Source: Chiloscyllium plagiosum
Lineage: Eukaryota
Length of the DNA stretch: 64,000 bases
Direction of reading: 5' to 3'
NCBI RefSeq assembly: GCF_004010195.1
Contig: NC_057718.1
Coordinates: 92,552,540-92,616,539, forward strand
Positions 30,809 through 56,612 of this stretch are shown here, one piece after another (the stretch's first letter is position 1; the number at the start of each line of letters is the position of its first letter). The translations under genes and the position numbers were made by a program. Below the pieces are notes generated by a model. The model searched no databases. It was not told the origin of the DNA and worked only from the letters and a program-made list of their open reading frames with translations.

Positions 30809-30990
30809 CTGAAAATGTGTTGCTGGAAAAGCGCAGCAGGTCGGGCAGCATCCAGGGAACAGGAGAATCGACGTTTCGGGCATAAGCCCTTTTTATGCCC
30901 GAAACGTCGATTCTCCTGTTCCCTGGATGCTGCCTGACCTGCTGCGCATTTTCAGCTCTGATCTCCAGCGTCTGCATACCTCACTTTCTC
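30809..30990. mobile_element. Fold-back Penelope pLTR mini-insertion
   Basis: 55-bp inverted arms 30831-30885 / 30893-30947; 17-bp duplication CTGCTGTATGAAGAGAG (30792-30808, 30991-31007). Confidence 0.88.
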
Positions 30991-31172
30991 CTGCTGTATG
31001 AAGAGAGACAATTCTTTGAGAACACTTGTTGGCAAGAGGAAGTATGGAAAAGGAACCAGGGAAAGGAATGCCAGAGATCTCAAGGTCAAGGAATAGTTAC
31101 ACCTCCTGGAAACACCTGCCAACTCTGATGAGAGATTAGGCTCTAGGATTGAACTCGTCAACCTCACAAGGA

Positions 31173-32085
31173 CTGTTTAAAAAGTGGAGGTCGACACCCC
31201 CTATGATAATCAAAACCAAAACACCCAGAGAGGAGCACCTCACCTTGCAAACTTATAGTGTGACAAAGGGTATAACCTATTGCTCACTCCCCAATCAGTT
31301 AAAAATGAAATGAAATGGAATCCTTTCACCCACTCTATAATTAACAAGTAACAATTTATTTATGTAACTCCAACAGTGAACAAAATAACAAAACAACTAA
31401 CAAACTGGAAAATCCCTCTCTAACTACCTTTCCATATAAAACAAGATTCTATTGGTATGCTGTTTCAGTAACACAGTTCCCACTTATATAAATCTAGATA
31501 ATAAGAACAATAAAAATTAGTCTCTCAAAGTTCACAGACTGCGTTTTCCAGAATGCTGTGTGATTCTGCTGTTGGGGATGTTTTCTCTGTAATTCTTCTG
31601 ATCTGAATGCCTCCCTCTATCGAATTCTTCTATCCGAAATACCTTCTCAATCGTTTTCTGGTGTCAAGAATATTCACTAAATGTGCCATGTACCATTATA
31701 GATGGTGCTTTTTAGAGAGCGTGGAGATTTCTTGTGAGAGCTCGGTGTTTCTTTCTTAGATGATGGGTTTGCTGTCCCTTCAGATAACAGTTGGCTCTCC
31801 GCTCTCTGACATTTGCCTCTCTGTTATATAACCCCTATGACAATTTGAATTCTTATAATATGATTGGTTTCAGGTTGTCAGCGCCATCAGATTTGAATTT
31901 AATTGGTTCTTAGTCTCCAAGTGCCTTTTTAAATTAATTGGCTGAATTTATGCTGCTTGGGCCTGCAAAATGAATGACGTTTTGATACATTGTGTCAATT
32001 CAGAGCACCTGCAGCTCCTTAACCACTTACTTTCATTTTTAAATTTCTAAGCAGAAAGAACACCAGCTTTTAAAGAGGCGTCACA
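31173..32085 (-). mobile_element. Solo-LTR-like element
   Basis: TG...CA ends. The minus strand shows CCAAT boxes, TATA (GGGGTTATATAAC, about 31825) and AATAAA (about 31356) in U3-R-U5 order, with an adjacent purine tract. Confidence 0.6.
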
Positions 32086-32299
32086 ATGCTTCCCCATTTT
32101 ACAATTTTACCATTTTTTTTACACGCCAACTTGTGACAAGGGGCCACAAAACTCATGAACAGTAACACAGAATTTCTTAGGTGGACAATTCATACTCATT
32201 AGTGAGTTATGGATGATGAGAGCATGAATTGCCAAAGACAGGTACAGAAAATAATTAGGAAAGCTATTTATGTGAATGGAATTGGATGCAAAAGTTGGG

Positions 32300-33510
32300 G
32301 GGGCATAGGCTATTCAACTAATCAAGCCTGATTAGCTTGCCCAATCTAGATCATGGCTGATCATCTCAATGTCATATTCTCACATTATCTCCAGACCCCT
32401 TAATATTATAGTCACCTGTTGTCAATTCCTACCTTGAATCTGCATTCTGAGCTTTCACAGCCTCCTAGGGTAGAACATTCCAAAGATACTCCACTCAGTG
32501 AAAAATTCCTCCTCATCTCAGTTTTAAATAGGTCGATTCTAGTCCTGAGATTATGTTTCCAGGTTTGACAATTATCAGCTGGAGGAAGCATCCTAACTAG
32601 ATCAAAAAAACCTGTTGTGGCCTGTTTTAAAAAGAAATCCTTGAGATTACTCTCATTTTTCAAAGCATTAGAGAGTAGAGGCTCAGTTTCCTCAAACTCT
32701 CCTCTTAAAATAATTCCACCATCCAAGGGATTAATCTGGTGAACCTCCATTGCACTCCCTCTGTGGCAAGTCTGACCCTCCTTGAGTAAGAAGACTAGCA
32801 CTCCGCACAGTAATCCAGATGAGATCCGACTAAAACTCTATACAATTGTAGCAATACATGTTGATTTCCTTGCTCAAATTCCCTGTACTTCAGCTCTAAA
32901 GAGCATTGATGAGATCACATCTAGAGTACTTGCACAGATGTGGTCTCTTTATTTAAGGAAGGATGTTAATGCATTGGAAGCAGTCCAGAATTCTTACTAG
33001 TCCAGTAACTGGAATGGGCAGGCTGAGTTAGGAAAGGATAGACAGACAAGGCTTGTGTCCACTGAAGTTTAGAAGAGTAAGAAACAAGTTAATTGAAAGG
33101 TGTAAGATCCTGGGGGGCCATGACACGATGAATGTGGAGTGGATGTTTCCTCTTGAGAGATTCTAGAACTGGGATCATGTTTAAAAATAAACTGTGCTGT
33201 ACGTTTCAGGTATCTGATTTGGAGAGAACTTGAGTGTGTTATTCTGGAACGTGTAGCATGAGGTTGTATTGCTTTCACTGGGTAGGGGTGGTGGCGGTGC
33301 ACCTTGTGTCCCAAACTGATTGGGAAGTCAGAGTCATACAGTACAGCAACAGACTCTTCAGTCTAACTCGACCATGCTGACCAGCTATCCCAAATTTCAC
33401 TAGTCCCATTTGCCTGCATTTGGTCAGTGTCTCTGTCGACCTTTTCCATTTCATGTAACTGTCCAAGTGTCTTTTAAACATTGTAATTGTACCCATCTCT
33501 ACCACTTCTT
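32300..33510. mobile_element. Cluster of CR1 3' fragments in both orientations
   Basis: Minus 32300-32860 (FKTEMRRNF), plus 32880-33200 (WSLYLRKDVNALEAVQ), minus tail 33330-33510. Confidence 0.75.
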
Positions 33511-35430
33511 CTGGTGGGTGGTGATGTTAAGATCCAGAGGAGAATGGGGGGTGGTCTAAACTTTAGTCCTAGGTACCTAAACGCACAACCAGCCACAATG
33601 GAATGGTGAGGGGATGAGCAAAGAGTTGGAAGAGTACAGAAATCGGGAGGCTGCTAGACTGGGAGGTTGCAGGTAGGGCAGGAAGCCAAGAAGGGAACTT
33701 AAAGCAAAGGTGATTTTCTTATAGAAAAGAGGAATATGTAATTCAACTAATGTAGCAATGAGAGTTGGATTTGAATTCCATTACTCCCCACCGAATGCAT
33801 TTTCACGTACTGTGCTTATGCAGAGTACAAATGTGAGTTGGAGAGCAAGGTTAGGAACTGACTATTTATCCCAAAATTAACTCCCATGAGCACGGAATTG
33901 CTTAACCCAAGATTTTGTTTCAGCTCAATAGCAGCCATGTTTTTGACCCAGCACCTAATTACATTTTAGGAAGCTGCAATTGTAGAGTAAGAACCTACAT
34001 TATGAAAAGCTGTGGAGTGCAGGGAACTTCTGTCAACACTGGAGCAGACTCTTCCTGCGTTCAGCAAGTTAGCAATCTTTCAAGTTCCTAAGAACTTTGG
34101 AAAACTAACCGCTTAAAGCAAACTATTTGGCTCCTGAAAGTTTATTTAGTAGACTATAAAATTCTAGAAGCATTGTAAGATTAATGAAGGCCATTTTACT
34201 TTCAAAACTTGGTTTGATAAATGACCAAGTCAAGGGACTATAAAGGGTTATTTTTAAAAATCATAAAATTGCAGATAATTGATGCATTAATTGGAGAAAT
34301 ATTTTTGGTGTCGTAATTTAACTTAATTCCCTGGGTGACAGGAACATTGATCACAGATCAAATTTCTGATCCCAACCAAGCAACAAGTGGTTACAAAAGG
34401 ATGCAGCAGCAGAAAAGGTACTCCCTAATTTCTTTACTTGACCAATTACTTGACTTCTATGATCCCAATTATTGACCTTTCTGGTATTAGGAATAGTCCC
34501 CTCCGAATCACCTACATAGCTGCCTCAGTCTTAATTAAATCTTCGTTCAGCCTTCTCTTTTCCAAGGAAAAAAAACTGCAGTATTTTCAATCTTTTTTTA
34601 TTTAAAATTCTCTATCCCTGGGAATGTCTTTGTCAATCTCCTTTGGATTCTGTCAAATGAAATTGCATCTTTCCTGTTATGCAGTGAGCATAAAGCTAGA
34701 GGTCTATACATTCTAGCATAACTTCATGCTCTTATACTTTGTGTCTGTAAATAAACTAAGGTATTGTATATGACTCCTTAATACCTTCGTCTACATGAAT
34801 GGTTATCTTCAGTGGTCTCAACAACCTTCATTTTACACTTCTCAAGATGCCCATCCTTTCATTTATTCCATTCTGTGTTGTCCTCCCCAACTACGTCACT
34901 TTCCCTCAGTTAATTCTCTGGATAGTTTTCATTTTCCACTTATATGCACCCCCGTCCAGTCCGCTTTTATTTAGCTACAGTCTGCATTTTTCTTCTTGTC
35001 AGTTTGCATATTATCACCATATTAAATATGTCCAAATTAGAAACAGGAGCACCTCAAAACTGCTTGCCATTTAATAAGATCATGATACACCATATTCCTG
35101 CTTACCCTTGAAAAAAAATCCTGTTTTGTTAATAAGAAGCTATTTACCCCTGCTTTTTAAAACATTTTTCAGCTTCTGCCTCTAGTACCTTTCCAGGAAC
35201 AGAGTTCCAAAGACTCATGACACTCTGGTGAAAAAAATTCTCTTTTGTCTTTGGTGCTGTTAGATCTTTGACTTGGGCCAATTCAGGCTAGATAGGGAAT
35301 TATAGGTATAGAATTTGCATTTATTAAGTGGAGAACACTCTTTGAAGTGGTGATATTTATAATGCTGTCAATATGGAAATTAGTTTCGATCACAATAACA
35401 TAATAAATTTGCTTTTTAAAAATTCACTAG

Positions 35431-35503
35431 GTTATTTTGTCAGATGCAAGCGTTCCTGGTGAGGGTGAACACAAGATCATGGATTACATAAGAAGGCAAC
35501 GAG
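35431..35503 (+). CDS. XRN2: XRN2 exon 7 ([24 protein letters not shown])
   Basis: Catalytic PGEGEHKI motif; CTAG| and |GTATGT; 73 nt. Confidence 0.97.
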
Positions 35504-35597
35504 GTATGTGTGCTATATTTGATTGGAAGATGGATTGGGGTGCTGAGGGGTCAGTTGACAGTAATCTTTTTTTTAAATGTTCATTTTTACTTTGCAG

Positions 35598-35648
35598 CTC
35601 AGCCAAACCACGATCCAAACACCCATCATTGTTTATGTGGAGCTGACG
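35598..35648 (+). CDS. XRN2: XRN2 exon 8 ([17 protein letters not shown])
   Basis: [12 protein letters not shown] motif; GCAG| and |GTGAGA; 51 nt. Confidence 0.96.
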
Positions 35649-35792
35649 GTGAGAATTTATCTTTATACTATGAGCCGTGTAGCTCTTGGGGAAGTTAGCT
35701 TTCAGTATCTTTTAACTTGTTAAAGATTGCTTTTGTTTCAGAATCTTGACTGCAATTATGTGGCATATAAATGCCTACTTTCTTTTCAACAG

Positions 35793-35950
35793 CTGATCTT
35801 ATTATGTTGGGATTGGCAACTCATGAACCAAACTTCACTATAATCAGGGAAGAGTTCAAGCCCAACCAGCCTAGGCCATGTGCTCTTTGTAATCAAGTTG
35901 GCCATGAAATCAAAGAATGCCAGGGTTTGCCAAAGGAAAAGCAAGGAGAG
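35793..35950 (+). CDS. XRN2: XRN2 exon 9 (ADLIMLGLATHEPNFTIIREEF...CALCNQVGHEIKEC...), includes CCHC zinc knuckle
   Basis: DADLIMLGLATHE motif; the CX2CX4HX4C knuckle is characteristic of XRN2 rather than XRN1; ACAG| and |GTACGG; 158 nt. Confidence 0.97.
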
Positions 35951-37233
35951 GTACGGTAATAAAAGCTGTAAAATGTTGCTGTTAACTACTTTCAGCAATA
36001 TTAATATCACTTCTGAAAATAAAATGAGATTTCTTCTTTTCTGGTCAAATGGGGAGGCATTTGACTTGTATTACTTGGCAATATGAGGGTGAAAACACCT
36101 GACTCTTTATCCTGTAGATATTGAAGCATTGCTTGAGAAACCAAACCATTTAAACAGTGCTTTAATTCATAGTGCAAATCGATTAGCAGGAGTGTCAGCC
36201 ATAGATTTCCAACATTTAACTTGACGCTCATTTTTATGGCACTTCATGCTCAGCTCACGGATGTGGACATCAAATAAAAGTTTATCTTTAACTTGCAAGA
36301 GCAAAAATATGTGTTTTGTTTACTCTGCATGGTTTAACTCCTTAACTTTCCTACACCTCTTCCCAAAAAGCCCACTTTACAACAGAGAAACACTTGACGA
36401 GCAAAGGTTTTTCAGCTTCGAGTTATTAAACCTGAATCCCTGCAGCCTATTGGTCAGCAGCAACCCATATTTTGAAGCACATCACTTCAACCTTCTTCAT
36501 TGCAACATTGCCAGGTTTAAACACTCAAATTGCTAATGCTTTCTCACCATCATTTTACACTCCTCACATTTTTGTTTATTCTTCTCCTGCAGCAAATGCT
36601 GACTCAACACTGATTTTTTTGTAAATTGAATGCTAGTAAAATTTGCTTTGAGCACACTGCACATCACTATTATTTATTCCCTTAAGAATGGTTCATTACT
36701 GTCTTTTAAGAGTGGCATTTAAGGAAAAGTAATGCTAGATTCAGATTTTACATTTGCTTCTACTGTGCTAATGGGAATGCGACAGCTCTGTTATAGCCTG
36801 CAAGGCTAAGCTTTTTGTGCCACATAATGCAGCTTTCCAAATAGGTTCATACTGTTACAGTAACATTGCCCTATTACCATTACTCCAAAAATAGCGATTC
36901 TTTGGCAGATTGCTTACCTTGTTTACTTTGTGTGTCATTCAGTGCAAAGATGCAAAGCAACCAAATAGCTATTTGGTAATTCTGAACTGGAGGATTACTG
37001 AAAAAAAGTGCATTTTGTCAAAGCTTTTTGACTTGCACGCATCTACAATTTGCAAGAATACCAAATCAAACAAAACCACTGTTTATGCTAGTCAGAGAGA
37101 TATGAGCTAATTCATGGGCAAGTGAACTCTGCCATGGCAACACTACTAATTATGTTAAACATTCCATCCATTTATTACTGTAATTTCATGTTGTATAAAC
37201 TTTGTTTTCCCCTTGAGTTGGTCATCGTGCAAA

Positions 37234-37269
37234 TTGTCCTGATGAATCCGTTATGAAAACCTTTGACAA
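37234..37269 (+). ncRNA. Degenerate hammerhead-like motif (another Penelope-type remnant)
   Basis: TTGTC-CTGATGA-ATCCGTTAT-GAAA-ACCT-TT-GACAA: 5-bp helix I closes the core, stem II is weak. Confidence 0.45.
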
Positions 37270-37329
37270 AATGTGTCAGCAATAAATAATGACATTGAAG
37301 TGCCCTCAAATAAACTAGATATGCTTACT

Positions 37330-37500
37330 GTGTTCATAAGGAAAGATTAGGATAGCCGTCCAAAGGCTTGTTCAAAGTGGTAGACCTTTAAGAAAAGTTT
37401 TAAATGAGTTCAAGATGTTAAGAAAGGTGTTCCAGAGCTTGGGTGCTGAGCAGCTGAAAACAATATCAAGTAATGGAGATGAGAAAAATCGTGGTGTGGT
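37330..37500 (-). mobile_element. L2-like LINE 3' remnant
   Basis: Degenerate TTCCAGAGCTTGGG..GCAGCTGAA segment typical of reverse-oriented L2 tails. Confidence 0.4.
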
Positions 37501-37860
37501 AAAATGTACAGGCAGTTCACCAGGTTACGAATGGGTTCTGTGTTTTGACTCCATATGTAAGTCTGATGCAATGCAGGACAATATAAAGTAACTGCTTGTA
37601 AGTACATGAAATGTTTGTCAGATCTTTAAAATTAAATCCCAGTAAAGGATCACATTCATAAGCATGGGTGCTTATAGCCAAATGTTCATATATTGGGGAG
37701 CCCTGTACTTTGCTGCTACACAATGGAGATATTCTGTTGGGTATAAATGTAATAACGGTAAGTGTATTCTTTGTTTTTTTTTAAAAAAAGTTGTTGGTAT
37801 TAAGATTGGCGAGTTTTTCACAGTCAAAATTATGATATTTTTCTTCCTTTCTTCCTTTAG

Positions 37861-37938
37861 TTTGATCAATTAGGAAGTAATCCTCCAATTGGCTCAGAAG
37901 TGGAATTCATATTTATTCGACTAACTGTATTGCGTGAG
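37861..37938 (+). CDS. XRN2: XRN2 exon 10 (FDQLGSNPPIGSEVEFIFIRLTVLRE)
   Basis: EFIFIRLxVLRE motif; long pyrimidine tract TTTAG|, donor |GTGGGT; 78 nt. Confidence 0.94.
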
Positions 37939-38016
37939 GTGGGTTGATCTCAAAAAATTGACTGTTAAAATGTTTGTTTGGCATGAACAAAACATTTTTT
38001 TTTATATTTTAACCAG

Positions 38017-38150
38017 TACTTGGAAAGAGAATTAACTATGGCAAGCCTCCCCTTCAAGTTCGATTTTGAGAGGAGCGTTGATGACTGGGTTTTTATGTGT
38101 TTTTTTGTGGGAAATGATTTCCTCCCTCATCTACCATCGCTGGAAATTAG
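38017..38150 (+). CDS. XRN2: XRN2 exon 11 ([45 protein letters not shown])
   Basis: [17 protein letters not shown] motif; CCAG| and |GTATGC; 134 nt. Confidence 0.97.
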
Positions 38151-38784
38151 GTATGCTAATTAACTTTATTATTTCAATGTTGTTTGACATTTTTCTGTAC
38201 ACTTTGGAATACTTGAAGATATATTGTTTAGATCATCAATACCTTTCTGAAAATCTCAGCTTTTCACTTCTTCAGTGTTGAGTTTCATTGTTTATTTTTT
38301 TAAGAAAATAAATATGGCTACCTTGATTTTTCCAGTTTAAAATGCTTTTGTTCAGTAAATTCTAACAACTTCTAGAAAGTTAACCTAAAAGAGTTGCAGA
38401 GCAGATTGGTGAAGCTGAATTTATTTGATACTTTCATGAAAAGCAGTTGAAATTTACAAGAGTTCTTGTTATTCTAAGGTGAAAACAAGGTCAATGTTGG
38501 CTTATTTCCTGCCAGCTATAGAGGGGGATTCTTTGTGCTGGAAACTAGACAGTTTCAAACAACAGAGACTCAGGCTTGCAGTGCAATGATGCTACCTTCT
38601 GATAACTGGGTTTTAATTGACTTCAGTGCATTCTCACAATTATGCTTTAAGTTAATTGTTCTGCATTTTCAAGATTCTAAGCTGCAAACCTTGTTCAGAA
38701 ATGTTAATAAATAATGCTTGCACACTTGCAAAATAGCATATTACTGGACTTAAAGTGCATTTATCTGAATACGACATATAGATT

Positions 38785-38930
38785 ATGTCAGTTCTGAGGA
38801 AGGTTCACCAGACTTGAAACGTTAACTTTGATTTCTCCTCTCAGATGCTGCCAGACCTGCTGAGCTTTGCAAGCAACTTCTGTTTTTGTTTGTGATTTAC
38901 AGCATCTGCAGTTCTTTTGGTTTTTACCAT
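38785..38930 (+). mobile_element. Penelope pLTR terminus (third family) with hammerhead 38790-38827
   Basis: AGTT-CTGAGGA-AGGTTC-ACCA-GACTT-GAAAC-GTT-AACT (helix I AGTT/AACT); downstream GATGCTGCCAGACCTGCTGAG and CAGCATCTGCAG shared with the other pLTRs. Confidence 0.75.
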
Positions 38931-39782
38931 TTATAAGTTTTGTTCAGACTTGAGACATGGAGAAAAAATTTCAGTCCCTGATATTTGTGAACTATGTGAA
39001 TGGTAGAAGCTCTGAAGCCCAGGGATTTGAGTGGGTTTCATTATTGGTTCATTGGGCGGCTGATCCCATTAAAAATAAGAAGCAGTATTAATAGGTAGGA
39101 GGCTGAAGGTGCTTTTGCTTCTCCTGGCCCAAAAGAATTGCTCTAAAACACAGTAATTTTTTTAAGTCTGTCAGCTCTCCCTTGCATTTTGTTTTTGGTT
39201 TTCGAGAGCTTGTTGGTAAACTTGTAAGGCTCTTAGTAATGTCATGAACTAAATAACAGAATTCTTTCTGTTCATGACATGTAATCCTCCCCCCTCATGA
39301 TGTAGCGATGTAAAAGGATTGCAGCAGCATACCTACTGAGTTTGGAATATGTTCACTGAATATTTTTAACTCTGCCCCAGTCAGTTATTAAAGACTGGGA
39401 ATTGTACAGGGCAGTGCAGAACTTAGCACAAAAGAGAGTTTTTTTCAATAAGCATGAAGTAATGAGAGTAAATTTAAGGTGTTTCAAATTTACCTTTGTG
39501 AAAGTCGTTGCTTGTGAATATTGGATAAATCATGGTAAGTTTTTTTTGTTAAAAAATAGTTATGCAATTAAACTTGAGTGGGATGAACATTTGTTATACT
39601 GTATTTCCACGCACTGTGTGCAGTTCAGTGTTTTGTGGGCTGCATTGTTTTATAAAATGTGTGACTTGTGTATTGCAACCACTCATAATATACAGTAGTT
39701 CCATATGAACAGAACTGATGACAAAAAGTTTGACCGTGTCATTTCATTCTTGAAGCTGACTTGTGTGCTGTGTTTTTCTCAG

Positions 39783-39840
39783 GGAGGGTGCAATTGATCG
39801 ACTGGTTGGCATTTACAAGAACGTAGTACACAAGACAGGG
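39783..39840 (+). CDS. XRN2: XRN2 exon 12 (EGAIDRLVGIYKNVVHKTG)
   Basis: TCAG| and |GTAAGT; 58 nt; frame continuous. Confidence 0.95.
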
Positions 39841-39924
39841 GTAAGTGATGTGAATCGCCTTGCCAACCTGTGTATTTAACTCCAAAAAAAATCTAATAAA
39901 CGACAATGCTTTTGTTTTCTTTAG

Positions 39925-40032
39925 GGTTATCTTACGGAGAATGGTTTTGTCAACTTAGAACGAGTGCAGATGATTATGGCTGCAGTTGGAGAAGCTGAAG
40001 ATAACATCTTTAAGAAGAGAAGAGATGATGAT
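39925..40032 (+). CDS. XRN2: XRN2 exon 13 (GYLTENGFVNLERVQMIMAAVGEAEDNIFKKRRDDD)
   Basis: GYLTE..VNLERVQ motif; TTAG| and |GTAAGC; 108 nt. Confidence 0.96.
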
Positions 40033-40628
40033 GTAAGCTCTCTCTGGTTTTGCAGCCTGCAGGCATATGTTCAAGAAATGATACTTAACACTGTGTTTGT
40101 AGTTAAAGATGAAGTTACTTATTATTAATCACTCGAGGTAAGTTATTCAGGTTTTGTCATTTTGTCATAAAATTTGACAAGTAAATATCCATTTTCCATT
40201 AGTTACCATTCAAAACTAAAAGCACACTTAAAACTTGTTGAAGGCTGTATGAAACAGCTAAGTTGTATAATGGGGGAGGGGGGTGGTTAACATTGTTTTT
40301 ACAGTACAAGTTTGCAATCAGCCTAGTTTCACGTTGCTGAAGTTGTGGAGTGTAAAAGGTTGTCAAGACTGAACTAACTCCCAAGTTTAGTTGAGACTGC
40401 TATCTCAAGGGAGTCTTGCTCCTCTTTGCTCTCCACCTGGATTCTGGCCTGTATTTGTGTTTCAGTTACATTGTGGTGTCAAACTAGAGGAAATGTTCCA
40501 CAGTATTGCTATAGACAGTGTGAATGAGCCCCTATGGGATAGTACTTCATGAAACTACAGTAAATAGCTGCTTTTAATTGATCTTTTAAACATGCAAGTA
40601 AGACAATTGGCATCTACTTCTTTCGCAG

Positions 40629-40673
40629 GTGTCATTTAGAAAAAGGCAAAAGGAAAAAAACAAAAGGATGAAA
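40629..40673 (+). CDS. XRN2: XRN2 exon 14 (VSFRKRQKEKNKRMK), basic putative NLS
   Basis: GCAG| and |GTAAGT; 45 nt; resembles the basic SFRRRQKEKRKRMK segment of vertebrate XRN2. Confidence 0.92.
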
Positions 40674-43432: not shown

Positions 43433-43651
43433 CTGGAAATGTGTTGCTGGAAAAGCGCAGCTGGTCAGGCAGCGTCCAAGGAGCAGGAGAATCGATGTTT
43501 CGGGCATGAGCCCTTCTTCAGGAATTCCTGAAGAAAGGCTCATGCCCAAAACGTCGATTCTCCTGCTCCTTGGATGCTGCCTGACCTGCTGTGCTTTTCC
43601 AGCAACACATTTTCAGCTCTGATCTCCAACATCTGCAGTCCTCACTTTCTC
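43433..43651. mobile_element. Fold-back Penelope pLTR mini-insertion with two back-to-back hammerhead cores
   Basis: 95-bp arms 43430-43524 / 43525-43619 centred on GGAATTCC; 15-bp duplication CTTCCAAGTTGGGAG (43418-43432, 43652-43666). Confidence 0.9.
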
Positions 43652-43999: not shown

Positions 44000-44232
44000 A
44001 CCGTTTGTCGTGGTTGTCGTTATGCTTGCCGAGCTGGAAAGTTGATTTACAGACGTTTCGTCCCCTGTCGAGGTGGACTGTGTCTGTATTGTACAGCAGC
44101 GCTTCACAGAAGGCTCCAAAGCACTGAAGATGTCACCTAGGCAGGGACGAAACATCTCCAAATCAACTTCTCAGCTCAGTGAACATACCCACAACTGGCA
44201 CCCAAGCTACAAATCTTTACACAACCTTGAAC
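44000..44232 (+). mobile_element. Poseidon-type Penelope pLTR with inverted 5' piece; hammerhead 44121-44156
   Basis: Homologous to 47150-47275; GCA-CTGAAGA-T-GTCACCT-AGGC-AGGGAC-GAAAC-ATC; partial inverted copy at 44049-44078. Confidence 0.8.
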
Positions 44233-45117: not shown

Positions 45118-45849
45118 GTGAGACAGTGGTAGACTTTAGGTGCCAAAGACATGTTTATGACCAGATATAAATATATGTTTCTTTATTAACAAATGATGTT
45201 AAAACTGTTAAATTAAAAGATGACTTTTATAATCATGTTCTAAGATGTTGCAGTTCTTGTATAATTTACAATGCTGCTTCAAGTTTAAATATAATATGGT
45301 GGAAATGTTTTTGTTTTTGTTTCCAAAAATCAAATGTGTGCTATATTTTATACGAGAATGTACCTCATCAACAGCATTTAGATTTTAGACATTAAGTTCC
45401 TTTACAAATTTCTGGAAGCATCCTTTTGAACAACCATTGAATAGGCTATAATTGTTTGCTGATCTCAAATTTTAAGTGTGTCTGCAATTTAAAAAAAGAA
45501 ATGTTGAACATTGCCTTTAATCCAGCATTCTCATTGAAGGCCACTTCCTCCAACTGCACTTTATCGCTGTACATTCATTTCATTCCACATCTTATGTAAC
45601 GAAAAGCTTTACAGGGTTGTTTGAAGGAAATCTGGATGGCAAGGTTATTCTAATCTTGGGGAGAGTGATCTGAGCAGAGTAGGAATCCTTGACTCCTCAT
45701 ATTTTCATTTAATAATTTTGTTAGTTTAAAGTGCTAGCTTTACAGTAGCAGACTTCTTTTCATGTCTAAGTATGAGAAGTTCTGATTATTTCCCTTTTAA
45801 TTAGACCACATCTTAGAAATTTTCTTGAGGTTTTTCTGCATACAAAATT

Positions 45850-46530
45850 TGAGGAAGACTGTTTTCATTGGTTGCGAGCCAACAGTGGCGATTAAGACCT
45901 ATCTGATTGGTCGGTTCTGCTATACTGGTTACTGTTGAAGGTGTTGCCACTCCTGGGGGCAATTAGATCTATTCTTATCCTTTTCTCATTGATACTGTCT
46001 TTTTGCTCCGTCTCAAAAATGTCAATGACACTCCTGATATAGAGTCTTTTGGAATCATGTTCTGTAGCATGCTATTCCCATTAGTAATGGTTGATTTAGC
46101 ACACTTCTTCAGGGGGTCCTTAAAACGTTTGCACGGAGTCCCACTGTTCCATTTGCCAATGTTCAGCACTTTGTACAACCCAAACGTGGGCAGTATATTT
46201 GACCCACCCAGTGCAGAAGGATGTCTTTGATACTGGTGTTAGCTATTTCTAAGACTTCAATGTTTGTGAATCAGTCCTACCAGTAGATCCTGAGGATGTA
46301 GCAGAGGCATCGGTGATGGAAGCACTCTAGATGGCGTAGATGATGCCACAGAACCAATGACTCTGCAATATATAGCATGATGATGAGGGCTGTGACTTTG
46401 TAAAGAGTTTGTTCTGTATGCTGGAACTGCACGTATTTATCAAGTCTTTTGGCTGCATTATTTGCTTTTGAAGGTTGATTGTCTGCTTTCTTGATGATGG
46501 CATTAAACAAGGTAATTCATCAAAGTTGAA
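45850..46530 (-). mobile_element. RTE LINE 3' fragment
   Basis: YKV....MLY.AES..L.HHLRHLECFHHRCL..ILRIYW and GK..GTP.KRFKD.LK motifs. Confidence 0.65.
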
Positions 46531-46569
46531 TTTTACATCTGTTGCAGTTCTGGTGTACTGCAGTATGTA

Positions 46570-47275
46570 CCGCGCAATTTTATCAACAGAAACTTAAGGG
46601 AAAGACAACGGAATGAGGACATGCCGCAACCCAAAGGACTAGTCACACTACCATACATCAAGAGCATTTCCAAACTGACGGCCCGACTACTGCGACCACT
46701 AGGACTCATAACAGCACACAAACCAACAGCCACTCTCAGACAACTCATCAGAACGAAGGACCCGATACCCAGCATGAGCAAAAGCAATGTAGTGTACAAA
46801 ATCCCATGCAAGGACTGCACAAAACACTACATAGGACAAATAGGAAGACAGCTAATGATCCGTATCCATGAACACCAACTAGCCACGAAACGACACAACC
46901 AGCTATCCTTAGTAACCACACTCTCAGATGACAAGCAACATGAGTTCGACTGGGACAACACTACTATTATAGGACAAGCCAAACAGAGAACAGCCAGGGA
47001 ATTCCTAGAGGCATGGCATTCATCCACAGATTCAATCAATAAGCACATCGACCTGGACCCAATATACCGGCCACTGCAGCGGACAGCTGGAACTGACAAC
47101 CGGAAGCGGCAGATACAAATCACTATAAATGCTGGAGGAAACATCACAGAAGCGCTTCACAGGAGGCTCCCAAGCACTGAGGATGTCACCTAGACAGGGG
47201 ACGAAACATCTGCAACACAAATTCCCAGCTCGGCGAACAGAACCACAACAACGAGCACCCGAGCTACAAACCTTG
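46570..47275 (+). mobile_element. Penelope (Poseidon-type) 3' fragment encoding GIY-YIG endonuclease, plus pLTR
   Basis: ORF 46621..47193: TLPYI, NVVYKIPCKDC..HYIGQ.GR.L..RIHEH, FDWDN, R.FLEAWH. Confidence 0.92.
47174..47213 (+). ncRNA. Hammerhead ribozyme core in Poseidon-type pLTR
   Basis: GCA-CTGAGGA-T-GTCACCT-AGAC-AGGGGAC-GAAAC-ATC-TGC (helix I GCA/TGC). Confidence 0.72.
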
Positions 47276-47289
47276 AATACCTATCTTCA

Positions 47290-47785
47290 CTGACTGCGAG
47301 CTATGGGTCCAAAAACTGAAGATCCAGTTCTAGAGCGTGGACATGAGGCCAAGGTCACAGTTTTGAGATCAGTCTGGAAGGGATAATGATGTTGAAGGCG
47401 GGGGTGTAGTGAATGAGCAGGAGTCTGTCACAGTTGTCTTTTTTGTCCAGATGTTTCCGGGTAAGTGCAGGTCTTGGGATATAGCATCCGCTGTGTACCT
47501 GCTACATTATAGGGGATTGAGGCAGGCTGGCAAGATTGGAGCTAATGTCAGTCATGACCAGCCTGTCAAAGCACTTGTAATTGTGGAGGTCAGAGCAACT
47601 GGGCGATAGTCATTAAGGCACATTGCATGTGCTTTCTTAGGTAAGGGGAGGATGGTCTTCTTGAAGCAGGTGGGGACTTTGGCTTGTAAGAGGAAGAGGT
47701 TAAAGATGTCAATGAATACCTCCGCCAGTTGGTCCGCACAGGATCAGAGTGGTCGGCTGGGGACACTGTTCGGGCCCATCACAGA
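47290..47785 (-). mobile_element. Rex1/Babar-like LINE RT fragment
   Basis: Minus strand [34 protein letters not shown] (frameshifted). Confidence 0.7.
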
Positions 47786-50700
47786 GTTCGAATAAACTTT
47801 GTTTTCAATCTCTCAAGTTAGAAAAGTCTAGGAACCACGTTTTTAGTTTTGGAGTATACAGTGGAAAATGGAAGTTGAGCACAGTTATATAACTTAAAAC
47901 GTAAAATTCTTTTTGCAACTTCAATTAAGTGGGATTGTGTGATGTACATGTTGAGTGCTTGTTACTTTCAGCACAGCGAATTTGATACTTTGCAGGATGT
48001 GTTTCTATCAGGAATCTGTTGAGTTAAAGAGAAAAACTGCCTTGTAATGGACAATGGATTTGCTTTGTAAGCTGCAGTTTTCACAGATCCTGTAAGGCAG
48101 GGTATTTAGACAACAGAAGCCTGCAGTGAAGAATTGTTTCTCTCTCCTTCTCGCCGACTGAAAAAGGCAATATTTGAACAAGCTGTAAGAAGAGAGTTTG
48201 AGCACAAGGCGAGACCCAGGTCAATCTAGTTGGCTATTGAATCAAAAGATTTATCATTGCACCGCAGGTGACATTGTCCCGTCACTGTTTTAAAAACAGT
48301 GAAAATTTTGTGAAAGACATCTTGTCCCATACTTGGACTCATGAACTGTAGAGTTTGTTTTTCTGTCTGTTTTATTGTTCTTAGAATTTGTGTAAAGTTT
48401 CCTTTTCTGGTTGTATTTGTGTATGACTGTGCATTTGAGGTTTGAAAGGAGTATAGGTTAAATTGCATAGTAATTTAGTTTTTTTTTGCCCTTCTGAAAG
48501 AATGTTTTGTTTTCTACAAATTGTGGTGTTTTCTGAATATTGAAACCTGATATGAGTTATTTTTGTCATAGAAAGCAATTGAAGTCAGACAATTTGAACA
48601 TAGTGGTTTAATTGGTGATTTATGCACTTATAACAGCTTGTAGAATGATGGGGCTCAATTGTTGCTGCACTCTTTCCATTTGAGTGAGAACAGAGATTGG
48701 TGAAATAATTTTGTACAACTTGAAGTCTTCAGTTGATACTTTGAGAGTTGGTGGTTCACTCCGAAGACTTTGATTCAACTCCAGACCAATGGAATTTTTT
48801 TCTCTGAGGCTGCAACAGGAGTTTGATTTAGGAAGACTCAATCTAGTCCACTTAAGCAGGCTTGTTTCACCAAATTGTACTTCATTCCATATTAATCTGG
48901 CAATCTCATTTCTGGGTAGAGGTGTTATGCTTCACTGTCCACCACCTGACCTTACAGTACTCAATATTGAAGATGGTGTGTCTGAAATTAGAAAATTCCC
49001 CACCTTCCAGCAAGGGTACCTGTCACTTTGAAGATTTAATGATTGATTATCTGTAATAAACTGAAGAGTAAATTTCTTACAGCCATCTGATTTAAGATGG
49101 GCAGTCAGGTAGTTATGCAACAAATGAATTTTCTTTCCAAATTTCATAGTTTTTACTTGTAGGTGTTAGTGGTAAAGAATCTTTGCTTAAAATTTTATTC
49201 ATACTAGTAGTTAGCATCTCATCTGAGCACCATATCTTGCCCATAGGCTGCTTGTATTATAAAATTCAATCTTCTGGCATTCAGTTGAGAGACACCTGTT
49301 TAGTTCAATTAACAGTACATTTTACTTTGACTCTTGACTTTTTGACTCTAATCTCCAGCATCTGCAGCACCCACCTCCGCCCCTTTGGCACAGGTGGTCA
49401 GACCACATGTGGAAGCCCCTGCGCTGAGCTACTGCAATGTAATGTTTACTTGATTTTATTTTCATCTGACATACCAACCCTTTAAAGTCTTATTTCTGAC
49501 CTATTCTTTAAGTACTGTAAAATAATGCAATTACTTTTCTTCTTCTTCTTTGTATCTAAGATCTGTACCTAGGTATGTGTACCTAAGTTGGCGCCACAAG
49601 AGGCAACATTGTAAAATCTTTCACTGTACTCCTGTATTTTTGTCCTTGTGTACTTAAGCACATGTGACAGTCAGCAATATTCTATTCTAAGGTTCCAAAA
49701 GGGAAAAGTGAAAACTGATATTTGATACTAAGCTATAGGTTTACATTAAAAACCTTGTAAATCTCCCAGTCTTTAGTGGCCTAATCCTGGATATGGATCC
49801 TGGTGTGATAAACAATGGACACCCTCCTCTTAACCCACACTGAGCCCACTTCCTTAAACAGTGCAGCTTTTGTTTACCCCTATCTGGCTGCTCAGACTTT
49901 TCCCATTGGGGTTTGATGTTCTGCCTTCCCTACCACTTGAGCTCCTTCCAGCAAGTTGCCTGTTTATTTCAATATGGTTATTTCTGATTGTTGTGTAGCC
50001 ATGCACACGTAAGAGGGAAAATTAATGGTGTCCATGGCCTGTTGTTTCATTCATTTCTTTTTTTACTCCAGAAACAAAATGCTTAAATTTTAAATTAATT
50101 CATTGGGCATGGTTGTAACATATAATAGGATCCAAAGCTTGAGAGATTTGTTAACTCTCTTTCTCCACAATCAGCATTAAAATTGCTTGCTGAGGCATTT
50201 GAGATCAGCTAAACTGAACAGTGTATGGATTGAACCTACATCATCTCCCCCCAACCCTAATTGGCTCGAATTGGCTTTTCAGTGCCAACTAACCAGCTGT
50301 TTAATAGAGAGTTAGTTTCAGCTCTACCATCTTGGAAATGACAATTGTTTTACACATCTAATTCAAGCAATTCAAATTGTCATACCACAAATATTAATAT
50401 TTATTGAATCAGACTGCATTTCACTCCAAAAAAAAATCAATCTTGGCACTTCATTATTAGGGGATATACTTGAAACAATTATTGGTGTATCTTTTGTTCA
50501 ACTTTTGCTTTTTGTAAACTGCAAACACCTGGTACTGACTTTGATCTGGTGGCTATCAGTGGAAGGAAGAAATCTTAAACACTTTTAGTTTTAAAAAATG
50601 AAATGCAAGGACATATAAAATTGATAAAAGATTATGTTCTCAATGATTGGATTCCAATTTCAAAATATTGTGAAAGGAAACGTTCCAGAATGAAAAAATG

Positions 50701-51013
50701 ATGTGCGAGTCTTTGTCTAAAATCAAACTCCTCTTCATCAGTTCAAGAAGGCAGCATTAGATCTCACTAACTGAAGTGTTACCTGTCGTTTATAGGTACT
50801 GTTTTGATTGTGGACTCGTAAGCCTTTTTTGATTTGTCAGATCAGTGACATTTCATATGGAGATGCATTTCTGTGACTTGCTGATTTATAATAAGTATGT
50901 ACGGCTGGCAGCATTTCACATTAAGCTGTGATTTTAGTGACATGACTGGTACAAGGCTACCTCTACAGTTTTTACAAAGGAATGCTTCAATCCTTTTCTC
51001 TTTAATTTTGTAG

Positions 51014-51123
51014 ACATCAGCCCACAGTAACAGTTCTAATTCAGATGGAAGCCCAGTGCCTCTAGGAACGAAGAGGAAGAATGGGGATAATGATGATGAC
51101 GATGAACCACCAGATAATATCAG
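51014..51123 (+). CDS. XRN2: XRN2 exon 16 (TSAHSNSSNSDGSPVPLGTKRKNGDNDDDDEPPDNIR)
   Basis: SDGSP..KRK..acidic..DNxR pattern; GTAG| and |GTACTG; 110 nt. Confidence 0.9.
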
Positions 51124-53869
51124 GTACTGTTATTGGCTCATTGCCTTATTTAGCTGTTCAGCAAATTCCTAAAATAGATGCACTAATTAATACCACTTAA
51201 TTTGAAGGAAAGAAATCATCTTTTCCATAACAGCTTTTCTGTTTATCGAGTAGTAATTAATGTGGAGGCATAGGAACGCTTAACAAAGTGTTTTGAGACA
51301 TTGGAGCTGTTGATTGAGGAGGGAAATTAGTTATCAAGTAGGTTGTCCTATTAAAAGTCCCTTCTGCCTCTGAGATCAAACTGTAAATTAGACATCTCTT
51401 TTTTTAATGTATTTTTGAGTATTCAATTTGAGTGCCAGTACAGAACATTAACCAGTTCCTTCCACTTCATTTTTGTGGTAGTAATTGGGAACTACAAAAA
51501 GCATACAGTGCACTTTTTTTGCTGGGGGTGGAGGGGGGCTTGGCTGAAGTTTGGGGAAGAATACTTTAACGTGAAGTATTATGAAATGTGGTTGACCTTT
51601 AAGCAGCAATACTAGCTTTAGTTTAAAATAATTGACAGCATTAATGGCTAAAATAAAAAAAGTAGTGTTATTGTATACCGATGGCTCAATTTGTACTTAC
51701 TATTTTACCGTGGGTGTACTCCAGTGATAAGCGCAGATTGTTAGGAGCTGACTATTCCAAACTAGGCATTACTCCAACTGATTGTGATAATCTCTTAAAA
51801 TGAACAGTACTTTGTTATTGAAGGAACGTGTTGAGACATTTTTCAAACTTTGCTCTCTGAAACTTGCTATTATACCCTCTATCTATTGGTTTGAGTGTTG
51901 AAATTTGATATTTCTACAAATCTAGTCTGAAAATTAAGATGGACGTTGTTTGGAGTTGGGGGTATGTCCATGAAACATTGTCTTAATTCTTTTCTACATT
52001 TACTTTAAATATTCACACACTTAATATACTTTTAAATCTGATTACTTTCAAATATCATATGGGCTAGAACGAATGTTCATATAATTACTGACCATAAATA
52101 CTGACCATAAATAGGTTGTTCACCTCAAGTTCGAGATCCAATCAATTTATGCGTGTCTACGTGGCTCATATTTTATTTCTTAATCTCCTGTAATTAGCCT
52201 GGACCTGAAATTCTGATAGAGTGACGTTGTATAATTAAACACCCGACCAAATCTTGCATGACCACCACAAATGGATTTAGAGCAGCATAGGTACAGAGGC
52301 CCTACCAACTTTTGGCAAAAATTTTCCACCGCAAACATTTTTATAAAATATTGAATGAATTCAGGTTGAAGATAATTCTAGAAATAATTTTTATTTATTG
52401 AATTGAGACCATGTTAAAACCTTACATCTTTGAACATCACTTTGTAATCCAAAAAAATTAATCAAACAAATGTTTATGAAGGAATTTAACACTTAAGTCA
52501 TGCTCAGTCCAGGTAATGAGGTTCTGCTTAGTACTTCCTGCATATTTGAGAAATGATCTGTCTTGAACTATATTCATTTGTAATATCAAGGAGAAAATTA
52601 ATAAAGTCAGTAATTTATGCAACAGAAGGAAACCAATTTGTCTGTCGAGTCCGTAATTCCAGAACAATCCAGTCAGCCTTGCTCCCGTACTTGATCCCGA
52701 GAGCATTTCAAGTTCCTATCCAATTTTTCTTTTGAAATCATTGATTCTATTTCCACCAACCTCATGGTGGCATGCTGCAGGTCATTATCCCTTGAAAGTT
52801 TTTCTTGATTTCCCCTGCATCTCTTGCAGTGTGTCTGCAGTCAGATGGCACTTTTAAGCAGGGCCTTCCTGGTATGGTTGTCATGCTCAACTGTTTGATG
52901 ACTTTTCTGCATTCACTATTGCAATTTCAACATGAGTGACCTTCAAGTATTTCATTGATTAGGACAGCTTAATTCGTGTGGGAGATGTGGAAGGTGCAAA
53001 TACGTGGGCAAGTTCATATTCTCTTCCTCTCTTGACTTATTCTTGTTGTTGCCTTCTCCTCTCATATTGACCAGCTTGCCTTCTCAATTTTATTTTTGTC
53101 TGTTTTCTCTCTCTCATTTGTGTCACTTTCTTAAAAGATTGTTTCAGTCAGTATGCTCTGTCACAGTAGCAGCATTTGTTTCTAATGGGGTTCAAAAACG
53201 CACAAAACAAATCATTAAACTGAGAATATTGTCAGCACAAAGGTCACCAGTTTAGCTTGTAGTCAGTGTCTGGAATGTGTATAGAGTGCTGTTTGTACTG
53301 ACTGGGTTTCTTTCAAACCAGTGTTTGGGTAGATGATTGGTTTCTTGGGGCTTTTTCTAAGAACTGTTACATCATTTTCCTTGGAGAGGCATTAAACTGC
53401 TAGAGGTGCAACAGGCTGGGACTTATGACTAGATTGCTTGTGTCGCAACTGACACAAATCTTGGGGTTAAGTACATTTTCATTACAAAAGTGGACACAAC
53501 TTTGTTAGCAGCAGTGCAAGGTCTCCTACTTGACAGGTTTCTGAGTTGGGTCTTGTTAAATGCACAACAGGCCAGTATGACTGGATGCATGATCTTCATT
53601 TGTGAGTTCCCCTTCCATATGTGGTTCCTGCTTATACCATAGCAATCTGACTTGAATTGCATTTGTGAACTTCCCTCATGTATTGCGCATGCAGTCCAAG
53701 AAGGCCTGACTGGTGTAGGTCAATGGCAACAACTGGTGGAACTTTCTGGGCAGTGAAAGGGAAAGCAGGGCAAGTAATTCTGCCCCTTCTGAAAACCCTC
53801 AGCATGATAACTGAATGCACTGGTGATCATGGATCATGAGCAGAGAATCCGACTCTTGTTTGGTTCCAC

Positions 53870-54078
53870 ACAGGGTGGTGTGGGCTGCCAGAGGAAGTGG
53901 TAGAGACTGGTACAATTGCAACATTTAAAAGGCATCTGGATGGAATATGAATAGGAATGTTTTAGCGGGATATGGGCCAAGTGCTGGCAAATGGGACTAG
54001 AATAGGTTAGGATATCTGGTTGACCTGGACAAGGTGGACCAAAGGGTCTGTTTCTTTGCTGTACATCTATGACTCTAA
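53870..54078 (+). mobile_element. CR1 3' tail
   Basis: LPEEVVE.GTI.TFKRHLD and the characteristic 3' UTR. Confidence 0.8.
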
Positions 54079-54326
54079 TTGTCTCAGGATGCACTTGCAA
54101 ATAAGATGAGTGAAAGCAAGATCAAAGTGTCTTGGTTTCAATGACTAGATTATGAGGGAGTGCAGCTTGGACCTGCTTTTAATATATGCTGGGGATAAAC
54201 TGCATATGAAGAGTAAGGGAAACTGAAACGCAATTGCATTTCTTTCGGCATTTTAACTCTGGTTGTTTCCCAGCAAGTAGGATGTGCTTTATTGCATTTT
54301 TTAAAAACCTTGTTTTTATATTACAG

Positions 54327-54462
54327 GCTTTGGGAAGAAGGCTGGAAACAGCGTTACTATAAGAACAAGTTTGATGTTGATGCTTCTGATGATAAATTCC
54401 GCAGAAAGGTTGTGGAATCATATGTTGAAGGTCTGTGCTGGGTTCTTCAATATTATTACCAG
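54327..54462 (+). CDS. XRN2: XRN2 exon 17 ([45 protein letters not shown])
   Basis: Conserved region 2 start; ACAG| and |GTATGT; 136 nt. Confidence 0.97.
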
Positions 54463-54759
54463 GTATGTGACCTTTTTGTTCATGATCTATTTTTATCAGA
54501 ATTCAATTGCAGCACATGATAAATTCCAACTTGAGTGTTCTTGTGGACATCAAAGGGGAGGGAATACATTTGGGGAATTGAGCATTTCCCTTTTCTCCCC
54601 TAAAATAACTCATTAGAAATGGCATTTTTACAATATCAGGTTGGGCAGTGTATTTCTATTACATTCCGCTGATGGTCCACATAGGCAGGCAGGATTAAGA
54701 AAAACCCCAAAGTGTTCTACATTTGTGTGAGGCACAACAGGATGGCCTGAGTGAGGGTA

Positions 54760-56612
54760 GGGCCAATCTATGATAGTGGAGGGAACTTGTGCCTGGAATC
54801 GGAGGAGGTAGGGGACATCTTTAATGAATACTTTGCTTCAGTATTCACTCGTAAGAGGGAACTTGTTTGTGAGGACAGGTTGATGTTAAGAAGGAGGATG
54901 TGCTGGAAATATTGAAAGACATAAGTCCCCTGAGCCAGATGGGATATAGAGGAGAAAGTGAGGTCTGCAGATGCTGGAGATCAGAGCTGAAAATGTGTTG
55001 CTGGAAAAGTGCAGCAGATCAGGCAGCATCCAGGGAACAGGAGAATCGACGTTTCGGGCATGATTCCTGAAGAAGGGCTTATGCCCGAAACGTCGATTCT
55101 CCTGTTCCCTGGATGCTGCCTGACGTGCTGCGCTTTTCCAGCAACACATTTTCAGCCCAGATGGGATATACTTAAGGTTATTACGGGAAGCAAGGGAAGA
55201 GATTGCTGTGCCTTCGGCGATGATCTTTGCAGCCTCACTGTCCACTGAAGTAGCAGCAAATGATTGAAGAGTGGCAAATGTTATTCCTTTGTTCAAGAAG
55301 GGGAATAGGGACTATAGACCAGTCTATAGACTGGTCTATAGTCCAGTCAGTCTTAAATTGATAGTGGGCAAATTATTGGACAGGATTCTGAGAGACAGGA
55401 TTTGTGATTAGAGAGTCAGCATGGCTTTGTGAGGGGCAGGTCCTGCCTCACAAGCCTTATTGAATTCTTTTGAGGATGTGATAAAACACATTGTTCAAGG
55501 TAGAGCAGTGGATCTGGTTTATATGGATTTTAGCAAGGCATTTGGTAAGATTACCCATGGTAGACTCATTCAGAAAGTAAGGAGGCATGGATATAGAATT
55601 GGCTAGCCCATAGAAGACAGAGGGTGGTGATAGATGGAAAGTATTCAGCCTGAAGCTCAGTGACCAGTGGTGTTCCGCAGGGATCTATTCTGAGACCTCT
55701 GCTATGTGATGTTTATAAATGACTTCGGTGGGGAATTGGAGGGGTGGGTTAGTAAGTTTGCCGATGACACGAAGGTTGGGGGAGTTGTGGATAGTGTGGA
55801 AGGTTGTTGTCGATTGCAACGGGATATTCACAGGAGGCAGAGCTGGGCTAAAAAGTGTCATACAGTGTTCAACCAGGTAAAGTGTGAAGTGATTCATTTT
55901 GGAAGGTCGAATTTGAATGCAGATTATAGGGTTAAAGGCAGGATTCTTGGCAGTGTGGAAGAACATGGGGATCTTGGGGTCTCTGTCCATAAATCCCTCA
56001 GAGTTGTCACCAAGTAGATAATGTTGTTCAGAAGGCATATGGTGTGTTGGCTTTCATTAGCAGGGGGATTGAGTTTAAGAACCGTGAAATTATGTTGTAG
56101 CTCCATAAATTCCTGGTTAGACTGGTCACCTCATTATAAGAATGAAGAAGAAGCTTTAGGGAGGGTGCAGAGGAGTTTTGCCAGGTGATGCCTGGACTGG
56201 AGGGCATGTCTTATGAAGGAAGGTTGAGAGAGTTTGGGCTTTTCTTATTAGAGTGAAGAATAATGAGAAGTGAATTAATAGAGTGTACAAGATGATAGGC
56301 GTGGATAGCCAGAGATATTTTCCCAGGGCAGAAATGGTTATCATGAGGGAGCATAATTTTAAGGTGATAGGAGGAAGGTTTACAGGAGCTGACAGGTAGG
56401 TTCTTTACACAGAGTGATGGGTGTGTGGAACGTATTGCCAGCGGTGGTAGTGGAGTCAAATACATTAAGAACATTTAAGTGACTCTTGGATAGGCACATG
56501 GATGATAGTAAAATAAAGGGTATGTGGTTAGTTTGACCTTAAAGTAGGAAAAAGTTTGGCACAACATCGAGGGCCGAAGGGCTTGTACTGTGCTGTACTA
56601 TTCTATGCTCTG
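54760..56612 (+). mobile_element. CR1 LINE (RT to 3' tail), degenerate
   Basis: ANVIPLFKKG, YRPVSL, DFSKAF, SGVPQG, FIND..KFADD motifs. Confidence 0.92.
54949..55156. mobile_element. Fold-back Penelope pLTR mini-insertion with intact + strand hammerhead core (55067-55094)
   Basis: 76-bp arms 54986-55061 / 55081-55156; 14-bp duplication CCAGATGGGATATA (54935-54948, 55157-55170). Confidence 0.9.

Follow-up and report, generated by a model that had tools for sequence, protein, structure and literature searches.

Fold-back stubs of Penelope-like elements in a shark genome and the position of their ends relative to a hammerhead motif

This study concerns a 64,000-nucleotide stretch of the genome of Chiloscyllium plagiosum (RefSeq assembly GCF_004010195.1, contig NC_057718.1, positions 92,552,540 to 92,616,539), called the window throughout, and the short fold-back elements in it, which consist of head-to-head copies of the hammerhead-bearing terminal unit of Penelope-like elements (PLEs). 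The window is vertebrate-like DNA (40% G+C) with fragments of long interspersed nuclear elements (LINEs). An earlier note on this DNA had listed five such elements without an open reading frame (ORF), here called stubs and named by their first position, and one non-inverted copy at 8981. All six are present where it placed them, flanking duplications included, but it missed two further fold-backs: 6880-7291, which belongs to the same family, and about 44000-44230, which comes from another PLE family. Positions in the unit are counted from the C of the hammerhead core (+1, which is 7166 in the reference copy, 6880-7291), and the predicted cut falls after +28. In the reference copy A(-4) is 7162, the predicted cut follows 7193, the tail-less end lies at about 7255 and the tailed end at 7290-7292. 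The stubs and the other main copies are given with their target-site duplications (TSDs).

30809-30990: fold-back stub; arms 30809-30893 (inverted, tail-less) and 30894-30990 (sense, tailed); TSD 30792-30808/30991-31007, 17 bp, exact
43433-43651: fold-back stub; both arms reach -4, AT overlap at 43524-43525, tail on the + arm; TSD 43418-43432/43652-43666, 15 bp, exact
54949-55156: fold-back stub; tailed arm on the - strand with its 5' end at +15, tail-less arm on the + strand from -4 (55063); TSD 54935-54948/55157-55170, 14 bp, exact
10851-11020: older fold-back, CTGATGA subfamily; short inverted arm +13 to +55 (about 43 nt), tailed sense arm from about -2; TSD 10838-10850/11022-11034, 13 bp, 2 mismatches
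18713-18830: inverted arm that is the tail alone (about +98 to +126), joined to a tail-less arm from -1, no arm overlap; TSD 18696-18712/18830-18846, 17 bp, 1 mismatch
8981-9108, - strand: solo copy with tail, beginning at -3/-2; minimal hammerhead intact at 9106-9079; TSD 8967-8980/9109-9122, 14 bp, exact
6880-7291, + strand: longer copy; about 200 nt of upstream 3' untranslated region (UTR) and a 79-bp inverted arm, 6880-6958
12526-13480, + strand: parent-type copy, CTGATGA subfamily; PLE ORF fragment 12526-12891, N gap, 3' UTR, hammerhead 13350-13377, tail
38790-38930, + strand: old third-family copy from about -4 on; AGTT/AACT as helix I; TSD possible but decayed

Direct sequence comparison confirmed the exact TSDs claimed for 30809, 43433 and 54949. 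The duplication at 18713 is also there, but with the length given above and not the 16 bp reported before, and the one at 10851 is degenerate, as described. The TSDs exceed chance expectation: around random 200-bp spans the longest exact repeat was 10 bp (3 of 1988 spans). The fold-back at 6880-7291 inverts about 200 nt upstream of the ribozyme and has a candidate TSD of only 5-7 bp.

The copies fall into a CTGAAGA type (7162, 8981, 30809, 43433, 54949) and a CTGATGA type (10851, 13346, 18713), whose representatives at 7162 and 13346 differ at 24 of 129 positions; the ends are about 81% identical. At its start the unit carries a minimal type I hammerhead, made up of CTGAWGA, a single additional base, helix II of 4 bp, GAAAC-GTC and helix I of 4 bp. 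The hammerhead was identified by its motif pattern, and its self-cleavage is predicted. It is intact at 7166, 9106, 13350 and 55067 and carries substitutions at 10896, 18744, 43521 and 43528. The cores of the 43433 stub (43528-43555 on the + strand, 43521-43494 on the - strand) have one substitution each, the 54949 stub keeps an intact motif at 55067-55094, and a complete core is absent from both arms of the 30809 stub. In that stub the inverted arm has its 5' end at +4 to +7 and the sense arm, with an internal 14-nt deletion, at +13. None of 12 matches in an Rfam scan was a hammerhead, and all 12 lay below gathering scores. Motif scans of viral, metagenome and prokaryote collections gave no hits, and sets of 22 and 10 loci from other scans were rejected as chance matches, with alignments of at most 30 nt among the 20 longest listed. 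In the third-family copy at 38790-38930 the helix I sequence differs, yet the start is still at about -4.

The Penelope origin proposed earlier holds: the arms are the 3' ends of PLEs and are tied to the PLE ORF at 12526-13480. There the CTGATGA-type end at 13346 sits 3' of the ORF piece, across a run of 289 N (12892-13180) that covers the endonuclease part. The ORF piece 12526-12891 is 89-91% identical to proteins P0001 and P0002, which carry RVT_1, a DKG motif and a weak GIY-YIG match (21.7 bits, cut-off 22.6); overall, the PLE ORF pieces in the window are 86-91% identical to proteins labelled Chiloscyllium punctatum. The CTGAAGA type has no ORF in the window, and its link to PLEs runs through the similarity of its ends to the CTGATGA type. 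Pfam found no family in either of the two PLE fragments of the window itself, a PDB search also gave nothing, and the 2534 hits of a search against representatives brought no further information. P0001 has a CX4CXXC linker between reverse transcriptase and endonuclease (EN), which is absent from another protein, P0157. A CX2-5CXXC linker is a Neptune feature that is common also to Nematis (PMC8557442). Because its relatives carry the linker, the CTGATGA-type parent points to Neptune (or Nematis), a clade reading taken from the linker.

The arms had been described as two copies of about 130 bp. They are indeed head to head, but they are unequal. The unit has two fixed 3' ends, an inner one at about +90 and an outer one at +125 to +127, 35-37 nt apart. 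The stubs at 30809, 43433 and 54949 have one arm at each, where 1-4 nt are common to element and target, so the 35-37-nt tail is on one arm only, and in 18713 one arm is the tail alone. Altogether 4 of 5 stubs have an arm at the inner site and 5 of 5 have one at the outer site. To sample the family more widely, sequencing runs were mapped on 6962-7411, and three were informative: X1 (contigs), X13 (contigs, second organism) and X21 (raw RNA reads). Loose ends of the mapped reads at 7290-7292 and 7247-7250 are the same two 3' classes.

This architecture is already known from PLEs. A fold-back with a one-sided tail has been published (PMC8557442, PMC3846280), and the tail is described there as 30-40 bp on one end only. 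In work on an Anolis PLE in vitro, both target strands were nicked and extended, a dimer was predicted, and the tail was the stretch between two internal start sites of reverse transcription on the RNA (PMC11167929). Insertion did not need hammerhead cleavage, and no reads ended at the cut (PMC11167929).

What seems to be added here is the position of the inner ends. Across the families that share the unit there are 15 arm 5' ends, partly placed by eye where arms overlap: seven lie at -4 to -1, one at about +5, three at +13 to +15, two at +80 to +98 and two far upstream. The clustering of breakpoints at the hammerhead claimed earlier is borne out, with 7 of 15 ends within 6 nt (p<1e-4 for uniform nulls spanning 130-300 nt; p=7.5e-5 for a null of -30 to +100), and with each insertion counted once it is 6 of 8 (p=1e-5). 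The inversion points had been placed in or beside the core. They are near it, but as two clusters, one at -4 to -1 and one in loop II at +13 to +15. The three arms of the latter (10893, 30894 and 55061) end in the 4-nt loop of helix II, a possible second hotspot, for example through nicking of a cDNA hairpin. In the mapped runs, depth from 7158 to 7170 rises 2.56-fold (X1), 5.78-fold (X13) and 3.61-fold (X21), the steepest of 11 intervals in all three, and the step is 2.3-4.8-fold once CTGATGA-type reads are removed. We found no prior report of an end cluster at -4 to -1 in the literature, with subscription papers and Repbase/Dfam outside the search. The cluster is a modest, testable addition to what is known of PLEs.

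The junctions between arms were also informative. In 43433 both arms end at -4 and have AT in common, which gives a loop-less centre, as if two cDNA ends had annealed via a 2-nt palindrome. In 30809 and 54949 each arm holds sequence absent from the other. The non-overlapping arms of 18713 are as expected from two primers on one RNA, and joints in X13 match that geometry (7171-7256 on opposite strands; 7256 to 7162). Both arms belong to the same subfamily in 5 of 5 elements and share variants, with arm differences of 1/62, 3/76 and 7/93.

The stubs are very probably products of two-arm PLE insertion. In the explanation that we favour, the PLE protein would nick and extend both target strands, and reverse transcription would begin at two internal RNA sites. 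Each target strand would prime one cDNA, and the two cDNA 3' ends would be joined head to head. The step of which we are least sure is that -4 would be the capped 5' end of a transcript from an internal promoter in the pseudo long terminal repeat (pLTR). Reverse transcription primed on the first pLTR would then run off after about 95 or 130 nt, and the stubs would be complete copies of the RNA leader; arms that end at +13 to +15 or further 3' may reflect a stop before the RNA end or trimming of the palindrome tip afterwards. As a whole, this account of dead-on-arrival two-primer insertions of a Neptune-type PLE with run-off at a capped start seems to us somewhat better than an even bet. Run-off at the transcription start as the cause of the -4 ends is preferred to a structural stop, but tentatively, at slightly less than even confidence. 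The site concerned is listed here.

7160-7166, + strand: initiator-like TCATTCC; its A at 7162 coincides with the 5' edge of helix I of the hammerhead

A(-4) fits the initiator consensus, which we take to be YYANWYY, in both subfamilies (TCATTCC, TTATTCC). Of the joints with inserted letters (12 of 83 listed), three enter at 7162, and all three inserts end in G. In the 54949 stub a G (55062) also precedes A(-4) of the tail-less arm, ambiguously, as it may belong to the other arm. An extra G is a sign of reverse transcriptase copying the cap, though our literature search gave no supporting paper. In Drosophila virilis, Penelope has an internal promoter with initiator and downstream promoter element in the pLTR (PMC2377424). 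In X21 the family is found in RNA on both strands, with no start evident, and most reads continue into sequence unlike the element, as those of copies lying within host transcripts would. At 7158, 87 RNA reads of X21 share a single flank (agreement 0.84) and enter the element at about -8, which we read as an expressed stub at one host locus. We also considered and rejected a 3' splice site at -4, as no AG lies ahead of the position in 7162 or 13346, and miRNA hairpins, which gave generic fold-back matches only.

Several observations weigh against this explanation. The initiator match is weak, with five YYANWYY matches in 6966-7291 and 2.3% per position in shuffles. The sample of G letters is tiny, there is no such G at 43433 or 38790, and the G may be templated by an unseen subfamily. 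The D. virilis start is not at helix I but about 120 nt further upstream (PMC2377424), a distance made up of 46 bp and a 75-bp intron that ends at helix I (PMC2377424, PMC4209133). Depth is still rising to 7230, so many ends lie further 3'; summed contig depth differs from copy number, and subfamilies with other upstream sequence can yield part of the step, the two in the window matching at only 106 of 159 upstream positions. The mapped runs have no position where many molecules begin or end, and no loose end lies at 7162-7165 among the 18 of 827 listed, so the ends are spread and not sharp to a single base. Finally, the inversions of 6880 and 44000 lie elsewhere, in 10851 and 44000 it is the tailed arm that extends further 5', and no full-length PLE (pLTR-ORF-pLTR) was seen in the window.

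Other explanations were weighed against the same data. The earlier note had suggested that a ribozyme-defined RNA end, or a structure, sets where reverse transcription stops. Its first half, in which the hammerhead cleaves the template and reverse transcription runs off at the cut, is hardly credible: the motif has published features of minimal hammerheads (PMC4209133) and one listed joint leaves at 7196, near the cut, but none of the 15 arm ends in the window is at +28/+29, and a cut product would be without the core that stub copies carry. Depth across the cut (7185-7204) changes 0.99-fold (X1), 0.75-fold (X13) and 1.25-fold (X21), so that no step crosses 7193 in any of the three informative runs. 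With the ends some 30 nt upstream of the predicted GUC cut, and no step in depth at the cut itself, ribozyme cleavage does not define the stub ends. The structural half fares better, -4 being the 5' edge of helix I, though we still judge it unlikely. In it the template is long, and reverse transcription or repair stalls at a folded or dimerised hammerhead or a bound protein, which would gather ends in two places, loop II and the 5' edge of helix I. Consistent with this, the last pair of the 4-bp helix I falls exactly at -4 in both subfamilies (CTGAAGA, CTGATGA) as well as in the third family (38790), 3 of 15 ends are in loop II, depth climbs gradually through the motif, and minimal hammerheads are thought to act as dimers (PMC4209133). 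However, reverse transcriptase would meet the 3' strands of helices I and II first and would undo the fold before -4, helix I is weak (3 pairs and U-U), the copies at 7162 and 13346 were read through, and the G before -4 is left unexplained.

Snap-back self-priming on one cDNA or antisense template followed by asymmetric tip deletion, or alternatively endonuclease trimming at ATT (-4 to -2), seems very unlikely. Self-priming has been proposed for PLE palindromes (PMC3846280), and 6880 resembles it, with a sense arm that starts further 5' and a loop of about 18 nt; this looped 79-bp fold-back would be a second route to inversion in the same family. In favour of trimming, the Anolis PLE endonuclease has a preference for ATT in the ORF-pLTR junction of its own element (PMC11167929), but the TSD edges are without ATT. 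Since the arms of 30809 and 54949 each have private sequence, simple snap-back fails there unless the tip was trimmed later, and it cannot give the loop-less centre of 43433. Nor does this explanation predict that in 4 of 5 elements the second arm stops at the inner start site, that one arm of 18713 is tail only, or that the solo copy 8981 shares the 5' end. A self-propagating non-autonomous family, similar to short interspersed nuclear elements (SINEs) or miniature inverted-repeat transposable elements (MITEs), in which short master copies from -4, solo or fold-back, are mobilised in trans, is improbable as well, if less so than snap-back. The family is abundant (81,510 matching contig records in X1 and 58,810 in X13), 57-79% of CTGAAGA-type depth at 7170 is missing at 7158, two of the listed head-to-head joints are each found in 2 contigs, with depth several times that of a single copy, and non-autonomous PLE derivatives exist (PMC8557442; bioRxiv 10.64898/2026.07.22.740005). 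Against it, the junctions in the window differ in 5 of 5 elements, and the listed head-to-head contig joints (4 among 15 of 57) are all different, in 1-2 contigs each, although perfect palindromes, which break contigs, could hide a recurrent junction. At least three sequence families show the same end, and the outer ends follow the start sites of reverse transcription on both arms, which would be needless if a fold-back RNA were re-copied. Compared with the long copy 7162, the stubs at 30809 and 54949 show only 3-4 differences over 83-112 positions, and they are as close to it as to each other, so there is no separate stub lineage in the window. Of the two options offered earlier, recurrent truncation products is the better one; a MITE-like class does not fit the differing junctions, the one-sided PLE tail on unequal arms or the varying TSD lengths.

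Two-primer PLE insertion can also be compared with known systems. EN+ PLE insertion units (PMC8557442, PMC3846280, PMC11167929) are like the stubs in their head-to-head inverted copy, one-sided tail and TSD, and further in heavy 5' truncation and a hammerhead in the terminal repeat. The stubs differ in that no ORF or second direct repeat is left, and in TSDs of 14-17 bp against 8-10 bp in rotifer PLE examples (PMC8557442, PMC3846280); the cluster at -4 to -1 is not reported for EN+ PLE units in the available parts of these two papers. The minimal type I hammerheads of metazoan PLEs share with the stubs CUGANGA, an extra nucleotide before G10.1-C11.1, a palindromic 15.2-16.2 without a helix III loop, a 4-bp helix I and mostly dispersed single motifs (PMC4209133). 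In Schistosoma, hammerhead pairs on opposite strands, 100-700 bp apart, were ascribed to truncated PLEs, but helix II is 7-8 bp there and 4 bp in the stubs (PMC4209133). Unlike the hammerheads of that paper, whose available text does not name sharks, the stubs have copy ends that the cut site does not mark. Non-LTR retrozymes are also non-coding, derive from PLE pLTRs, carry a type I hammerhead and occur in a chondrichthyan, but they are head-to-tail tandems, whereas the stubs are dispersed, head to head or solo, with their own TSDs (bioRxiv 10.64898/2026.07.22.740005). A retrozyme reading was rejected, as no head-to-tail tandem pair is found among the window copies.

In L1 twin priming, both target strands prime cDNA, and an inverted 5' piece is joined by microhomology. 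The stubs would share the two-strand priming and the microhomology, and 18713 has the expected non-overlapping arms, but the arms of four stubs overlap almost fully, needing strand displacement or two RNAs, and the priming would be at fixed internal sites. MITEs have equal terminal inverted repeats (TIRs) and a TSD of fixed length. They are short, non-coding, palindromic, abundant and flanked by TSDs, as the stubs are, but the stubs have no equal TIRs, TSDs of 14, 15 or 17 bp, variable centres and a retroelement parent. The MITE candidate was rejected on the tail that sets the arms apart and on the TSD length, which is not fixed.

Some other joints and features were recorded. Tail-to-tail joints on opposite strands (7250-7290 and 7259-7292) recur in 7 + 2 contigs of X1 and 3 + 1 of X13, where X1 joint counts are lower bounds; one further joint steps back 36 nt, which duplicates the tail, and another leads from 7294 to 7162. 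Such joints may come from copies that inserted at the ends of others. The remaining PLE features of the window are given below.

44000-44230: fold-back belonging to another PLE family; inverted arm without tail from stem II; sense arm with tail from about -36 (by eye)
46543-47275, + strand: 3' end of the second PLE family, the copy related to 44000-44230 lying at about 47150-47275; C-terminal ORF fragment ending in hammerhead 47177-47210
49337-49381, + strand: tail-region fragment only

The fold-back at 44000-44230 has the same tail asymmetry, about 13 unassigned nt at its centre and a possible 8-bp TSD, and its ends are not at -4. The ORF fragment at 46543-47275 is 86% identical to P0157, which carries PF00078, and the lack of a CXnCXXC linker in that relative suggests that the second family is Penelope/Poseidon-like. 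Shark host-gene isoforms P0160, P0162, P0168 and P0170, with annotations that include a MAP3K7, a 5'-nucleotidase domain protein, CUEDC2 and EYA3-like, contain pieces of the second-family ORF; we take these fusions as exonisation or gene-model artefacts. A G+C-rich segment at 14995-15801 with several overlapping open frames is probably a promoter CpG island or first exon. LINE fragments, presumably CR1/L2-like, lie at 3100-4700, 20600-21150, 25800-26550 and 60000-61070, with an RVT_1 match on 26082-26543.

How PLEs make inverted pLTRs and what their hammerheads do are open questions in the field (PMC8557442, PMC11167929), and ORF-less stubs with clean TSDs are the simplest reaction products on which to ask them. 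The stubs argue that in vivo the template end is not determined by the ribozyme cut and that priming takes place on both target strands, at the two start sites. If -4 is the capped start, it would explain the abundance of solo minimal hammerheads in such genomes. A further and doubtful possibility is that shark Neptune-type PLEs are transcribed from an initiator directly next to the hammerhead, that a reverse transcriptase dimer, primed on both target strands at the two internal start sites of this first pLTR, copies only the 95- and 130-nt leader to the cap, and that stubs with the promoter could reseed as a non-tandem, non-autonomous family. If this is true, hundreds of stubs would be a fossil map of RNA start, cap copying and two-primer integration.

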